Shown in pieces: positions 20,718-37,724 of a stretch of 64,000 nucleotides of DNA. Each line of letters begins with the position of its first letter. The stretch's first letter is position 1. A model generated the notes under the pieces. The model searched no databases. It saw only the letters and a list, made by a program, of their open reading frames with translations, and was not told where the DNA came from. Origin of the DNA: a virus; the IMG/VR virus record IMGVR_UViG_3300020573_000227, positions 37,684-101,683 of that record; one strand, given 5' to 3'. The position numbers and the translations under genes were made by a program.

Positions 20718-20789
20718 GCCTCTTAAGCATTGCAGGCGATGCGCATGACTTGTAATCATGATAACTCGGTTCGATTCCGGGCGGAGGCT
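20718..20789 (+). tRNA. tRNA-Thr(TGT)
   Basis: Cloverleaf; CATGA-CTTGTAA-TCATG; TTCGATT T-loop. Confidence 0.85.
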
Positions 20790-20791
20790 CA

Positions 20792-20974
20792 ACAGGTGAC
20801 GACGGTGGTGGAACCCCACTGTCTATAAATCTCAACACCCGCCTTGATTCGCGGTATTATAGCGGTGAGAGTAGAGTTACTACAAGTCGGGAGTAATTAA
20901 CCCAATGACGAAAGTGTAACCACAGATATAGAGATATATTTGTTATGATGTACGAAAGGGTACGAAAAACCTGT
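20792..20974 (+). ncRNA. Unknown structured RNA (~183 nt) between tRNAs
   Basis: Closing stem ACAGGT/ACCTGT plus 5-6 internal hairpins. Confidence 0.55.
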
Positions 20975-20979
20975 AATTT

Positions 20980-21053
20980 GGATTGTTGGTGAAGTTGGTT
21001 ATCATGCCACCCTGTCACGGTGGAGTTCACGGGTTCGAGTCCCGTACAGTCCG
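20980..21053 (+). tRNA. tRNA-Asp(GTC)
   Basis: Cloverleaf; CCACC-CTGTCAC-GGTGG. Confidence 0.92.
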
Positions 21054-21062
21054 CAAAATATT

Positions 21063-21148
21063 GGAAGGATGGCAGAGTTGGTCTATCGCGTCGGTCTTGA
21101 AAACCGAAGTACTGAAAGGTACCGTGGGTTCGAATCCTACTCCTTCCG
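21063..21148 (+). tRNA. tRNA-Ser(TGA)
   Basis: Cloverleaf with long variable arm; TCGGT-CTTGAAA-ACCGA. Confidence 0.92.
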
Positions 21149-21150
21149 CA

Positions 21151-21240
21151 AAGAATTAACTAAGATACCGTAAAATCGGTAGGTGGTGATTCCAGATTTA
21201 TCTGTGAACCATTTAAACCCTGAAAGCAATGTTAGTTCTT
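21151..21240 (+). ncRNA. Unknown structured RNA (~90 nt)
   Basis: Closing stem AAGAATTAAC/GTTAGTTCTT; internal TACCG/CGGTA and CAGA/TCTG hairpins. Confidence 0.45.
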
Positions 21241-21247
21241 TTTTTTT

Positions 21248-21319
21248 GCTCGGTTCGACTAGTGGTTAGGTCACCACCCTTTCACGGTGGTTGCACGGGT
21301 TCGAATCCCGTACCGAGTA
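21248..21319 (+). tRNA. tRNA-Glu(TTC)
   Basis: Cloverleaf; CCACC-CTTTCAC-GGTGG. Confidence 0.92.
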
Positions 21320-21398
21320 CAATATTTTTTTTATATCAAGATATTGATTTACAATATTTTATTCTGTATATTTATCATATTATTAATATTTATAATAT

Positions 21399-21701
21399 AT
21401 GATAGATAAAATCACATTATCGTTAATGTTATTTTTTAACACATTAACATCATCTATCGACCCAAGTCTTTCCGATGAAAGAAAGTCAGTCAATCAAATA
21501 AAAAAAGAGATTAAGTCTCTTGAAAGAAAGATTGAATGGGTTGAAGTAACAGATGAGAATTACGCTAGCAGGGCCGTCAAAACCAAAGAAATCACGGACG
21601 AGATTACCAAATTGAATGGTAAAATTGTAAAGATTGAGAAGGTAGCAATTTTAAAAGAGAAATGGGCTAAGGAAGATTCCTTAACCAAATCGAAAAAATG
21701 A
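21399..21701 (+). CDS. Hypothetical coiled-coil protein, probably exported
   Basis: Hydrophobic N-terminus; TATTTATA box upstream. Confidence 0.6.
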   Translation: MIDKITLSLMLFFNTLTSSIDPSLSDERKSVNQIKKEIKSLERKIEWVEVTDENYASRAVKTKEITDEITKLNGKIVKIEKVAILKEKWAKEDSLTKSKK

Positions 21702-22147
21702 AAAAAATTTTTTTAGTGCTGACGTTACTTTTGGGAGTGGAAGTCGTGGCAAATGGACAAGAGTGGTTTATAACCGCCACTCGAAAAGGCGGTCCATCAG
21801 ATGGTTATATAACAGGTGGTTTTATGAAAAAAGGTTGGGGGTTCTATGCTGGTCTTCCTTATGGTGAAATAGGTGGTACTAATGGTGGAATTTCAATTCC
21901 TCCTGGCGTCAACACTAAAACAGGAAATGTGTCTGATAACATGAAGTTTGGTGTTCTTAGACAAGTAAAAGAGGACAAGGCGATTGTTGGATTTGGATTA
22001 CAACCAACGATTGATGGTAACAAACCAAATTTTCTTATAATGTACAATCCACTTAGACCAAGTAGTGTTTTAAATCTATGGACAATTGGTAATATGGTTG
22101 GTGATGATTTTACATTAGGACTTGGATTATCGTATAAAGTCAAATAA
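21698..22147 (+). CDS. Small probable outer-membrane beta-barrel protein
   Basis: Signal peptide; ends FTLGLGLSYKVK. Confidence 0.6.
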   Translation: MKKIFLVLTLLLGVEVVANGQEWFITATRKGGPSDGYITGGFMKKGWGFYAGLPYGEIGGTNGGISIPPGVNTKTGNVSDNMKFGVLRQVKEDKAIVGFGLQPTIDGNKPNFLIMYNPLRPSSVLNLWTIGNMVGDDFTLGLGLSYKVK

Positions 22148-22262
22148 AAATTTTAGTTAATTTAATTCCCCGAACAAACTAAAAAATGTTCGGGGTTTTT
22201 TTATACCATATTTTTTTGTTATATTTAAATTATAGTTCTTTGATGTATTGGAAAAACAAAAT

Positions 22263-22347
22263 GCCTGGGTGATGAAATGGTATACATGACAGACTTAAAA
22301 TCTGTTGAGCAGAAACGCTCGTGCGGGTTCAAGTCCCGCCCCAGGTA
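22263..22347 (+). tRNA. tRNA-Leu(TAA)
   Basis: Cloverleaf with long variable arm; ACAGA-CTTAAAA-TCTGT. Confidence 0.92.
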
Positions 22348-22348
22348 C

Positions 22349-22460
22349 AAATGTAATGACTCAGAAATGAGTGACGGAACGGACGCTATGTATGAAATGG
22401 AAACTTTTGAATCACGTACAAAGGTGATAATTAGACACAAACCGTACAGACATTACATTT
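22349..22460 (+). ncRNA. Unknown structured RNA (~112 nt)
   Basis: 10-bp closing stem AAATGTAATG/CATTACATTT; ACTCA-GAAA-TGAGT; ATCAC/GTGAT. Confidence 0.5.
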
Positions 22461-22499
22461 AAACACTATCGTTCTTTGAAAATAAAGGAGAAAATTAAT

Positions 22500-22748
22500 A
22501 TGGACATATTATCATTTATTTTAGGAATGTCAATAGTTGTGGTTATCGCAGTTGCGGTAGTTGCGGTTATTGCCTTTGTTAAGGTTAATAAAACTAACAA
22601 AGAAATTGAAACGATTCATACCATTATGGGCAATGAATCTGAAAGGTCGCATAGAGAGCGTGAAGAAGCAATTCAAAATGTTTATAGAACATTAGATTCA
22701 CGACTTGATAAACTTGAGAGTAAAATAACAACAAGCCGTAAGGCATAA
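22500..22748 (+). CDS. Single-TM coiled-coil protein inside the tRNA array
   Basis: N-terminal TM; AAAGGAG SD; flanked by a 19-bp inverted repeat. Confidence 0.7.
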   Translation: MDILSFILGMSIVVVIAVAVVAVIAFVKVNKTNKEIETIHTIMGNESERSHREREEAIQNVYRTLDSRLDKLESKITTSRKA

Positions 22749-22788
22749 CGATTAAATAAAAACTTTCAAAGACGATAGTGTTATTTTT

Positions 22789-22862
22789 GGTTCCGTAGCT
22801 CAGTTGGATAGAGCAACATCCTTCTAAGATGTGGGTCTTTGGTTCGAATCCAAACGGGATCA
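22789..22862 (+). tRNA. tRNA-Arg(TCT)
   Basis: Cloverleaf; ACATC-CTTCTAA-GATGT. Confidence 0.92.
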
Positions 22863-22872
22863 CGTAAATTTT

Positions 22873-22946
22873 GGACTTGTAGCTCACTCGGTTAGAGCGG
22901 CACACTCATAATGTGAAGGTAATAGGTTCGATTCCTATCTGGTCCA
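22873..22946 (+). tRNA. tRNA with CAT anticodon (probably Ile2, possibly elongator Met)
   Basis: Cloverleaf; CTCATAA loop; paired G1-C72, so not an initiator. Confidence 0.8.
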
Positions 22947-22950
22947 CAAA

Positions 22951-23140
22951 CAATTAACTCATGGGTCTCCGATGGAAGTCCGCAAGAAAAATAGATGTTT
23001 TTCATCCATCAAAAAATTACCATAGAGACCGCTAAATCGAGTTAGTGAAAATCTACATTCTCATTGGTAATCATTCATGACACCTACCGGTGGTTCCACA
23101 CTAAGGTTATGTGAGGCTTCGGCTGATAAAAGGGTGTTAT
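22951..23140 (+). ncRNA. Unknown structured RNA(s), probably pseudoknotted
   Basis: Nested stems ATTAACTC/GAGTTAGT, GGTCTC/GAGACC, GATGGA/TCCATC; loop-to-3' pairings; ATGACACC/GGTGTTAT. Confidence 0.55.
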
Positions 23141-23142
23141 AT

Positions 23143-23293
23143 TGTAGTGTGACGAAATTGGCAAACGTGCCCTCCTGTCTCGGGGGTGTGGACAAAGAAA
23201 TAGATTGATAATATTAGGGGGTAGACCACCAGCTTGCAAGCGTCATGTTATCAGTTGAATCTCCACTTGGTGGTTCGAACCCATCCACTACAG
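23143..23293 (+). tRNA. tRNA-like RNA (GTC anticodon) with ~80-nt structured variable arm
   Basis: Acceptor TGTAGTG/CACTACA, D arm ACG/CGT, anticodon arm CCCTC-CTGTCTC-GGGGG, T arm GGTGG-TTCGAAC-CCATC. Confidence 0.75.
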
Positions 23294-23310
23294 CATTAAA
23301 TTTTTAAAAT

Positions 23311-24018: not shown

Positions 24019-24820
24019 TGGCCGCCTATGGTCGATTAAAATAAACCATGAAAGTGGGATAAAGTGACGAACCTTTGGTTGAGGTAAGTTGCGGTTTCAG
24101 AAATGGAACTCGAGTAGGCAAGTGGAGTATCGTTGAACCTTAAGTACTGAGGGTAACACTTTAGGGAAAGTGGTTTGACGACCAAGCAATCCGAGTTGTT
24201 TGGTTGAGGTGGGAACACCAATAAGAATAATCCATAGAGTTATTACAAGAAGTAGGACCTCCAATCTTACAATTGTGTGATTCAATATGATGGGAATCTT
24301 AAAACCGAAAGGTATGGTGAAGTACGAGTGGTGTCGTTATCATCCTTTATTAGACTCTACCAAGGGTTTAGTACTGAAGGGGTCCAAAAATATGGTGGCA
24401 GGGATGTTACAGAGAGTAGTTTAGTATCGAGTCGTTCAAAAGATGGCTTGGCTGGTCGACGAACCGCTACTTTCCAAATTCGGAAACTAAATTTTGTTAA
24501 TTCAGGTTTAACAACTTAAACATAACAAGAAAAAGTGTTCGTCAGTCGTTGTAGACAGGTGGCTACATAGTCGTGAGGGGTTCACGGCCACAAAGGGTCT
24601 CAAGCCCGATGTGATTTTTAAAAAAGTTCTCTAGACCCGCAAGGTTGAATCAGGGAGGCATCTTTGATGAGTAATGAGTATTAAAAGAGTATATAACGAC
24701 TCAAGGATTGGTTAATCTAATTGACCGCCGCTGATTGGTACTACTCAAAAGGTAGTGGAAAGGGGAAGAATCAAATAATGTCCCTAAGTCAATTATTAAG
24801 ACATGTATTCTCAGTGTTTT
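24019..24820 (+). ncRNA. Large (~800 nt) structured ncRNA, GOLLD-like
   Basis: No credible ORF, GC above background, many hairpins and GNRA loops, own TATATTTG promoter and boxA-like site, next to a phage tRNA array; family inferred from size and context. Confidence 0.6.
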
Positions 24821-26688: not shown

Positions 26689-27084
26689 GGGGATGTTTGG
26701 TATTGATTTCAGGTATCAGGGATAAATGGCACGTAGTCAGAATTCATCTATGACTTAAATCCACGGTGAAGCAATTTAAGCGGCAACGTTTATAACAACA
26801 TGGAAGTAGCAGGTATTCTTGCAACTTCTAACGTAGCAGTAGCCTAAGGCGAAACTACAATCGGGTCGATGTACATATAACCTGGGAACAGAAGTACTTA
26901 AGGTGGAACACTACCCAAAAGTGTTGGAGCAAATTTGGTGGCTCTTGAAAATCCAGTCAGAAACGGTATTGTAGGTTTCCCGTAATTAACTTACTATTTG
27001 TCAATTGAGAACCGATTGAATAAACGTGTAGTCATTTATTGTTGAACAGGAAAGACACGGGTTCGACTCCCGTCATCTCCACCA
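26689..27084 (+). ncRNA. ssrA: tmRNA
   Basis: GGGGATG...CATCTCCACCA with G3-U70, T arm ACGGG-TTCGACT-CCCGT; tag ORF 26782-26847 GNVYNNMEVAGILATSNVAVA*. Confidence 0.92.
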
Positions 27085-37376: not shown

Positions 37377-37724
37377 ATGTCTAAAATATACCAACCAATT
37401 ATAATTGAAAGAGTAGATGAAATGATTGAGATTTTGACTGAAACAAATTTCTTCTCAGACTATGATTTAGAGAGTACCGATTTTGCTAAAACTTATTTAT
37501 TGGATAAATTAACCGAAAAATTCATATCGGGTGAATATGACATGGAAGAAGATGAATTTTTTGATGAGGAAGAGTTTGAAACGGTTCTTAGAGAAATTGT
37601 TGCCGGTTCTATTCTTTATGACTTAAAGAAAAAGGGATTTGTTGAGTCGTATGATGATGAAATTACTGAAGAATTGTTTTTTTTAACTGAAAAGGGAAAA
37701 AAGTTATTAAAAAAGGATAAATAA
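37377..37724 (+). CDS. Acidic hypothetical protein (possible winged-helix tail)
   Basis: LYDLKKKGFVE...FFLTEKGK. Confidence 0.65.
   Translation: MSKIYQPIIIERVDEMIEILTETNFFSDYDLESTDFAKTYLLDKLTEKFISGEYDMEEDEFFDEEEFETVLREIVAGSILYDLKKKGFVESYDDEITEELFFLTEKGKKLLKKDK

Follow-up and report, generated by a model that had tools for sequence, protein, structure and literature searches.

The tRNA island of a lake phage contains a locus that reads like a tRNA with the aspartate anticodon GTC and has some 80 nucleotides inserted between the anticodon and T arms. What kind of RNA does such a locus encode, and what could be its use in a phage that already carries a normal tRNA-Asp? The locus lies in a stretch of 64,000 nucleotides (positions 37,684 to 101,683 of the IMG/VR record IMGVR_UViG_3300020573_000227), which is referred to here as the window. 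An earlier note, made from the sequence alone, described a tRNA-like RNA with a multi-helix variable arm and suggested that a tRNA scaffold displays an RNA domain, or that the RNA is a decoy for anticodon nucleases or synthetases. The computational analysis presented here partly supports that reading, in which the family of relatives, the frozen anticodon arm, the aspartate identity set, and the systematic self-complementarity of the tip were absent. The element is a genuine RNA gene of 151 bases under strong conservation, and its shape is that of an aspartate tRNA that has a folded arm of about 80 bases.

Structure of the element

The element forms a full tRNA cloverleaf with an arm of 79–82 nt in the variable region (Table 1). 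The canonical features of a tRNA are present, including a 7-bp acceptor stem, a D arm with G18 and G19, a 5-bp anticodon stem with a 7-nt loop, a 5-bp T stem, and a UUCRANY T loop. The exception is position 37, where the expected purine is replaced by a U that is invariant across the members of the family. The spacing from the anticodon arm to the T arm is 82 nt, whereas 4–5 nt are usual. The ARAGORN calls in the window, seven ordinary tRNAs and one tmRNA, do not include the element, and Rfam returned no match to it even at E-values up to 10, RF00005 included. When positions 23188–23265 (give or take 2 nt) were removed in silico, ARAGORN called a tRNA-Asp(GTC). The details listed in the earlier note, namely the four intact tRNA arms, the class-II-like D arm, the GTGGA...TCCAC pairing that encloses a 12-bp stem and a palindrome (23188–23266), the non-purine U37, the U-A base pair 1, and the normal tRNA-Asp(GTC) at 20980, were all found to be correct.

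The fold is supported by an alignment (A1) of 53 phage members, in which 37 base pairs were scored. The share of paired cells is 94.5%, versus 41–54% when the 3′ partners are slid. Twenty-three of the 37 pairs change on both sides, and none of 500 shuffles equalled the observed score. The folding z-score of the single sequence is −0.86 and is unremarkable alone. Covariation is present in the acceptor, D, T, outer arm, and long arm helices, with the anticodon stem as the exception. In the acceptor stem, five of the seven pairs covary, and U1-A72 and G2-C71 are present in 53/53 aligned members. Two of the three D-stem pairs covary (A-U to U-A, and C-G to U-A) next to an invariant GG in the loop, and four of the five T-stem pairs change on both sides below an invariant GUUCGA loop. 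Both-sided changes were also found in three of five pairs of the outer arm stem (helix 4) and in nine of twelve pairs of the long arm stem (helix 5), in which the U-G and A-U pairs at the top are invariant. Three pairs of the anticodon stem never vary, the remaining two vary on one side in a single sequence, and the sequence of the anticodon arm is invariant in phage and bacterial copies. The comparison of homologs, which the earlier note had proposed as a check, thus finds the insert conserved and covarying. To describe the RNA as a scaffold on which a tRNA displays an RNA domain is fair, since nothing is missing from the tRNA body and the insert, rather than being an intron or junk, folds into a domain that is conserved and covaries.

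The arm is modelled as a three-way junction of the long stem, a conserved small hairpin, and the phage palindrome. The long stem contains G-U pairs, one of them invariant, which are compatible only with an RNA transcribed from the plus strand. In the asymmetric internal loop between the outer and long stems, A58 is invariant and U59 and A60 are at least 90% conserved; on the 3′ side, A116 and A117 are invariant. A by-eye comparison of this loop with the K-turn, loop E, and UAA/GAN motifs gave no convincing fit. The core of the arm contains the invariant residues G77, G78, U80, G82, A83, C84, C85, A86, and C87. It was modelled as a short hairpin that has a UNGA loop and one bulged A, because the flanking pair, which closes the core, covaries (G-C in 90, U-A in 26, and A-U in 6 of 157 sequences). 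A pairing between the ACCACC part of the core and the T stem was discarded, since the T stem varies whereas the core is fixed. In a subset of loci (L001, L027, L028, L040, L054, L058, L060, and L095), the T stem has a 6-nt 5′ strand, GAGUGG or AAGUGG, which pairs only with one bulged U; the bulge seems real because the pairs flanking it covary (G-C, G-U, and A-U).

Table 1. Features of the element and of its surroundings in the window.
Feature	Position	Strand	Description
Ordinary tRNA genes	20718–22947	+	seven genes
Canonical tRNA-Asp(GUC)	20980–21054	+	one of the seven
Spacer	22948–23142	+	195 nt, from tRNA-Met to the element
Whole element	23143–23293	+	151 nt
Acceptor stem, 5′ strand	23143–23149	+	UGUAGUG; 7 bp with 23286–23292
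D arm	23152–23168	+	3-bp stem ACG/CGU, 11-nt loop with G18 G19
Anticodon arm	23170–23186	+	CCCUC-CUGUCUC-GGGGG; GUC 23177–23179, U37 23180, C38 23181
Outer arm stem, 5′ strand	23188–23192	+	GUGGA; pairs with 23262–23266
Internal loop, 5′ side	23193–23202	+	CAAAGAAAUA; asymmetric, conserved
Long arm stem, 5′ strand	23203–23214	+	12 bp
Conserved core	23218–23230	+	GGGG-UWGA-CC-A-CC (here loop UAGA); modelled as small hairpin with bulged A
Palindrome	23232–23241	+	GCUUGCAAGC (GCTTGCAAGC); perfect, 10 nt; proposed homodimerisation site
Long arm stem, 3′ strand	23245–23256	+	
Internal loop, 3′ side	23257–23261	+	GAAUC
Outer arm stem, 3′ strand	23262–23266	+	UCCAC
T arm	23269–23285	+	GGUGG-UUCGAAC-CCAUC
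Acceptor stem, 3′ strand, and 3′ end	23286–23294	+	CACUACA 23286–23292, discriminator G73 23293, encoded C74 23294
GOLLD RNA	24412–24817	+	RF02032, 302 bits
tmRNA	26689–27084	+	ARAGORN tag GNVYNNMEVAGILATSNVAVA; Rfam 82.8 bits

A family shared by Bacteroidota and their phages

The element belongs, as a phage-borne member, to an uncatalogued family of RNAs that are shaped like tRNA-Asp and occur in Bacteroidota (Cytophagales and Chitinophagales) and their large phages. The nearest relative is on a 316-kb virus contig, the copy of which is 94% identical. Viral contigs were scanned with three exact patterns, one from the 3′ end of the RNA, one from the conserved core of the giant arm, and one from the anticodon arm. 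The anticodon-arm pattern alone identified at least 119 loci on viral contigs, and at least 87 distinct phage sequences with lengths of 117–172 nt were extracted. Among the tRNA-like matches listed, the distance from the anticodon stem to the T loop was 52–106 nt, and none had a normal variable loop. The same 16-mer, run over one genome per prokaryotic species, gave at least 120 loci, nearly all of them from Bacteroidota among the matches listed. At least 132 distinct chromosomal copies were obtained from Cytophagales and Chitinophagales. The cultured carriers belong to Dyadobacter, Spirosoma, Cyclobacterium, Algoriphagus, Belliella, Echinicola, Arcicella, Flectobacillus, and Persicobacter, and copies are also present in metagenome-assembled genomes of Saprospiraceae. 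All tRNA-like bacterial matches listed have giant arms (43–127 nt), and tandem arrays of two to five copies are frequent. The chromosome of Persicobacter diffluens (L186, genome G003) has five tandem giant-armed copies with a spacing of 172 nt and, elsewhere, eight tandem ordinary tRNA-Asp genes. An insert-free copy of the same tRNA body was not found among more than 200 members.

A covariance model (R1) built from A1 separates the family from ordinary tRNAs, as true members, 109–212 nt long, score above 87 bits, and ordinary class II tRNAs at most 61 bits. The model found a single copy in the window, with 159 bits; in an even sample of 151 Bacteroidota genomes, it found true members in 13 (about 9%). 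A blastn search of 50,697 isolated phage genomes identified no homolog, only chance matches to the T arm or to coding sequences. Rfam searches at permissive thresholds with the phage copy and a Dyadobacter copy gave no family, ribozyme, or intron match, and a full-text search of the literature found no description of a giant-armed tRNA-Asp-like family.

Probable processing and charging

The element follows the tRNA-Arg and tRNA-Met genes of the window on the same strand, and in two related loci (L017 and L019), it is positioned 5–9 nt from the flanking tRNAs, within tight arrays. All seven ordinary tRNA genes of the window encode the discriminator and a single C, none the full CCA, and they have in common with the element a 3′ trailer in which the C is followed by an A-rich sequence. 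G73 and the C are encoded in 87/87 phage and 131/132 cellular members, and the full CCA only in 8 phage and 23 cellular ones. The trailer and the G73-C pattern point to processing by RNase P and at the 3′ end, with the CCA completed by host enzymes. The nearest phage record does not encode a class IIb synthetase, AsnB, or a CCA-adding enzyme. Judging from these signals, the RNA is very probably processed as a tRNA.

The strong determinants of aspartate identity are G73, G34, U35, C36, and C38, and G2-C71 is a minor one (PMC9976931). All of them are invariant in the alignment. We infer charging by aspartyl-tRNA synthetase (AspRS) because the five strong determinants and G2-C71 are invariant, and the RNA is likely to be aspartylated. 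Identity elements are necessary but not sufficient for charging, and the giant arm could hinder AspRS. The first base pair does not follow the aspartate pattern. In bacterial tRNA-Asp, G1-C72 is a strictly conserved pair, which helps to position the acceptor end in E. coli AspRS (PMC9976931), whereas 87/87 phage and 130/132 cellular members of the family have U1-A72.

Ordinary tRNA-Asp genes with the anticodon loop CUGUCAC are present alongside the giant-armed RNA in 5/5 host genomes checked. U1-A72, U37, an anticodon stem frozen in sequence, and a normal tRNA-Asp that is always present speak for a specialised role of the RNA. It is probably not a routine decoder, as far as can be judged from these sequence features.

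The self-complementary tip of the phage copies

A perfect palindrome of at least 10 nt is present in the arms of 56 of the 87 phage members (64%), compared with 6% of shuffled arms. It is always located immediately 3′ of the core and has about 20 different sequences, which include GCCGGCCGGC, GCUUGCAAGC, UCCGGCCGGA, GCAUGCAUGC, UUGUGCACAA, GCGCGC, UGCAUGCA, and GCUAGC. A shorter phage type has a 6-nt palindrome between A residues (AAGCGCGCAA). Self-complementarity at the tip of the helix is kept while the sequence changes. The centre of the palindrome, which cannot pair within one molecule, is also self-complementary, whereas a hairpin would need only the complementarity of its stem. The palindrome of the window could form a weak 3-bp hairpin of its own, with a predicted energy of −1.5 kcal/mol, versus −16.3 kcal/mol for the intermolecular duplex, and the homodimer is predicted to be 16 kcal/mol better than two monomers. 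An additional hairpin in the D loop, sometimes palindromic, is present in 22 phage members, the copy from the window not among them.

Palindromes of at least 8 nt were found in 23% of the cellular members and 24% of their shuffled counterparts, which is no overall enrichment; the exception is CGAGCUCG in Cyclobacteriaceae. The cellular members often have a tetraloop-capped hairpin on the opposite side of the core. Dimerisation is not the core function of the family because the cellular members are mostly without palindromes. The self-complementary tip is, in our model, an addition of the phage lineage that should make the RNA dimerise. Alternatively, the palindromes could have a role at the level of DNA, or they could be ordinary hairpins with loops that are self-complementary by chance.

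The arm changes faster than the tRNA body. The element differs from that of locus L011 at 2 of 72 positions in the body and 21 of 79 in the arm, and from that of L001 at 3 of 73 and 14 of 79 positions, respectively. Near relatives diverge by 18–27% in the arm and 0–4% in the body. Almost all arm differences between close relatives are compensatory, the palindrome is switched to GCCGGCCGGC, and the flanks are mosaic. By this sequence comparison, the arm evolves as alleles, and different phages have different palindromes that would be mutually incompatible.

Genomic neighbourhood

A GOLLD RNA is located 1.1 kb downstream of the element, on the strand of the tRNA island. The match is full-length over the conserved 3′ half of GOLLD, and the variable 5′ half would be located upstream of 24412. 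The elements of all 12 related loci inspected are in tRNA islands; a GOLLD RNA is encoded within a few kilobases on the same strand in five of them and is missing from the fetched flanks of the other seven. The window also encodes a phage tmRNA, as do loci L009, L025, L034, and L047. The spacer in front of the element has no significant fold (z-score of the minimum free energy −0.88) and no Rfam match, and it is near-identical in close relatives only. The protein-coding neighbours in the window, a metallophosphatase, a PhyH-type dioxygenase, a peptidoglycan-binding protein, and several open reading frames without a Pfam match, are uninformative.

No conserved protein partner was found across the phage and bacterial neighbourhoods. 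The neighbour in Spirosomataceae is a divergent Lrp/AsnC-type regulator. In Cyclobacteriaceae, a RluD-like pseudouridine synthase is encoded upstream, and a 1,437-residue open reading frame without a Pfam match downstream. These lineage-specific neighbours look like local synteny and not like a functional link. In seven Cyclobacteriaceae loci (L152, L156, L162, L173, L182, L194, and L196), the RNA is followed by a conserved stretch of about 40 nt (AGGUUAUUUUGGGUUUAUUGUUAAUUGACUAAAGC) that leads into the open reading frame of about 1,440 residues and may be a shared promoter or leader. Locus L017 contains two further tRNA-scaffold RNAs on the minus strand (6262–6143 and 6033–5956), which have a common acceptor stem (AGUCAGG) and T arm and differ in their middles; they are 120 and 78 nt long, score 37 and 32 bits with the Rfam tRNA model, and are not called by ARAGORN. 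The two appear to represent another family of tRNA mimics with inserts.

Relationship to known RNAs

Class II tRNAs (Leu, Ser, and Tyr) and allo-tRNAs (RF00005; Mukai et al., PMC5389517) likewise combine a cloverleaf and a 3-bp D stem with a helical arm in the variable region, and R1 cross-matches tRNA-Leu and tRNA-Ser at 45–61 bits. However, class II variable loops are described as at least 10 nt long (PMC7609411), whereas the arm of the element has 79–82 nt (43–127 nt in the family) and is branched. The element also has the identity of Asp and not of Leu, Ser, or Tyr (or Sec), together with U37 and an invariant anticodon arm, and it does not belong to class II. The canonical tRNA-Asp(GUC) of the window has in common with the element GUC, C38, G73, G2-C71, the 7-nt anticodon loop, and the canonical T loop. 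It differs in having G1-C72 instead of U1-A72, A37 instead of U37, another anticodon stem, and a 5-nt variable loop in place of the 80-nt arm.

The species 1 and 2 RNAs of phage T4 (rnaC and rnaD) are likewise stable-RNA genes, located last in a cluster of phage tRNAs, and the T arm of rnaC is tRNA-like. They contain neither the GUC anticodon arm nor a comparable arm. Kinship was rejected, as rnaC scores 15 bits with R1 and rnaD has no match, compared with more than 87 bits for members. The tip resembles the dimerisation initiation site (DIS) of HIV-1 in being a short GC-rich palindrome at the end of a helix, flanked by purines, and some phage members have AAGCGCGCAA or GUGCAC, the latter being the HIV-1 DIS hexamer (PMC7357161). 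The RNAs and their biology are unrelated, the palindrome of the window has 10 nt and may form the weak hairpin, and the dimer is a prediction here. GOLLD is, like the element, a structured phage RNA of tRNA islands, and it self-assembles (10.1101/2024.12.08.627333). It is a separate gene, with open reading frames in between, and has no similarity to the element in sequence or structure.

Proposed function and alternative explanations

Based on the conservation and the predicted interactions, we consider it reasonably probable that the locus encodes an uncatalogued RNA that is processed as a tRNA, aspartylated, and not used in routine decoding, and that its phage form homodimerises through the tip. 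The RNA would be transcribed together with the neighbouring tRNAs, excised by RNase P and 3′ trimming, and completed with CCA by the host enzyme. Host AspRS would then charge it. U37, the frozen anticodon stem, U1-A72, the 80-nt arm, and the coexisting normal tRNA-Asp would set it apart from a routine decoder, and the frozen anticodon arm and the core hairpin would be the most likely contact sites of a dedicated partner. Two molecules of the phage copies would pair tip to tip, by a kissing interaction or as an extended duplex, into a two-bodied tRNA mimic. We speculate further, as an unlikely possibility, that aspartylatable bodies (two, or many in members with a palindromic D-loop hairpin) are joined by allele-specific tips into a self-assembling mimic that engages dimeric AspRS or the transamidosome, or becomes the cargo of a GOLLD cage.

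The complete cloverleaf, the 7-nt anticodon loop with GUC, the canonical elbow nucleotides, the full aspartate identity set, and the position in tRNA islands would also suit a working elongator isoacceptor that reads GAC and GAU, to which the arm was added for stability, regulation, or a modification enzyme. We regard such an elongator as unlikely. The invariant U37 contrasts with A37 in the ordinary tRNA-Asp of the window and of the hosts, the anticodon stem is frozen while the other stems drift, U1-A72 replaces the bacterial G1-C72 (PMC9976931), and the RNA is always redundant with a normal tRNA-Asp. A review of non-canonical tRNAs, in which a length of at least 10 nt is given for class II variable loops, contains nothing near 80 nt (PMC7609411). 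A spliced tRNA is highly improbable. The insert would be an intron or a small mobile element, removed to leave a tRNA of ordinary size, in agreement with the acceptance by ARAGORN of the sequence without 23188–23265. However, the tRNA body is without an insert-free copy among the members, the insert contains the most conserved motif of the family after the anticodon arm, and the spliced product would retain U37 and U1-A72. The earlier note had already argued that the insert lacks the length of a group I intron and is not at an intron position. Group I introns of bacterial tRNAs have a group I core and interrupt the anticodon loop, whereas the insert has 79 nt between the anticodon and T arms and no ribozyme or intron match in Rfam. 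We know of no bacterial introns at this position of a tRNA.

The two remaining alternatives give the RNA a use outside of decoding. It could be an amidation platform away from the ribosome, on which AspRS loads aspartate and GatCAB, selecting U1-A72 and rejecting G1-C72, makes asparagine. U1-A72 permits the amidotransferase to act on Asp-tRNA-Asn, whereas on tRNA-Asp its action is blocked by G1-C72 and U20a (PMC9976931). The aspartate identity set together with U1-A72 corresponds to this published rule for amidation substrates (PMC9976931). The extra D-loop base of the family is mostly A or G and rarely U, versus the antideterminant U20a, and GatB is encoded in 5/5 host genomes. We nevertheless find the platform rather improbable, since GatB is common anyway (12/14 control genomes), AsnRS is present in 5/5 hosts, no fate is known for asparagine on a non-decoding RNA, and there is no obvious benefit to the phage. 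Known GatCAB substrates carry Asn or Gln anticodons, and the element carries GUC. Replacement of asparagine synthetase was rejected, as the survey of GatB, AsnRS, AsnA, and AsnB in five hosts, and of AsnB and AsnA in 12 carriers and 12 non-carriers, showed no anticorrelation. Strong AsnB-type synthetases are present in 10/12 carriers and 9/12 non-carriers, and none of the 24 genomes has AsnA. As AsnB is no rarer in carriers than in non-carriers, the RNA is not a stand-in for asparagine synthesis. The decoy of the earlier note, a sponge that soaks up an anticodon nuclease directed at tRNA-Asp or ties up dimeric AspRS, appears doubtful. The tRNA-like shape and the tRNA-Asp anticodon are those of a decoy, the predicted two-bodied phage dimer could span a dimeric enzyme, and the divergence of the arm between close phages is allele-like. 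However, the RNA is not a phage invention, as the family is chromosomal and ancient in hosts that keep a normal tRNA-Asp. Its anticodon arm is no copy of that of the host tRNA-Asp, from which it differs in U37 and the stem, and no defence or toxin genes are adjacent.

Significance

RNAs that are shaped like tRNAs and do not decode, such as tmRNA, the Y-RNA-like YrlA, and the species 1 RNA of T4, are rare, and each has opened new biology. The giant-armed RNA is abundant, with members in about 9% of the evenly drawn Bacteroidota genomes and on more than 100 contigs of large phages, and it is invisible to tRNA finders and Rfam. It combines a full synthetase identity set with features that argue against routine decoding. 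The cultured hosts Dyadobacter, Spirosoma, Cyclobacterium, and Algoriphagus make the RNA directly testable. The tips of the phage copies are predicted to be a natural, allele-variable module for RNA dimerisation, which is timely as the GOLLD and ROOL assemblies from phage tRNA islands are being solved. If the self-assembling mimic is real, it would represent a new class of multimeric RNA with which phages take over translation, and the host RNA on which it is built would likewise have a new function.
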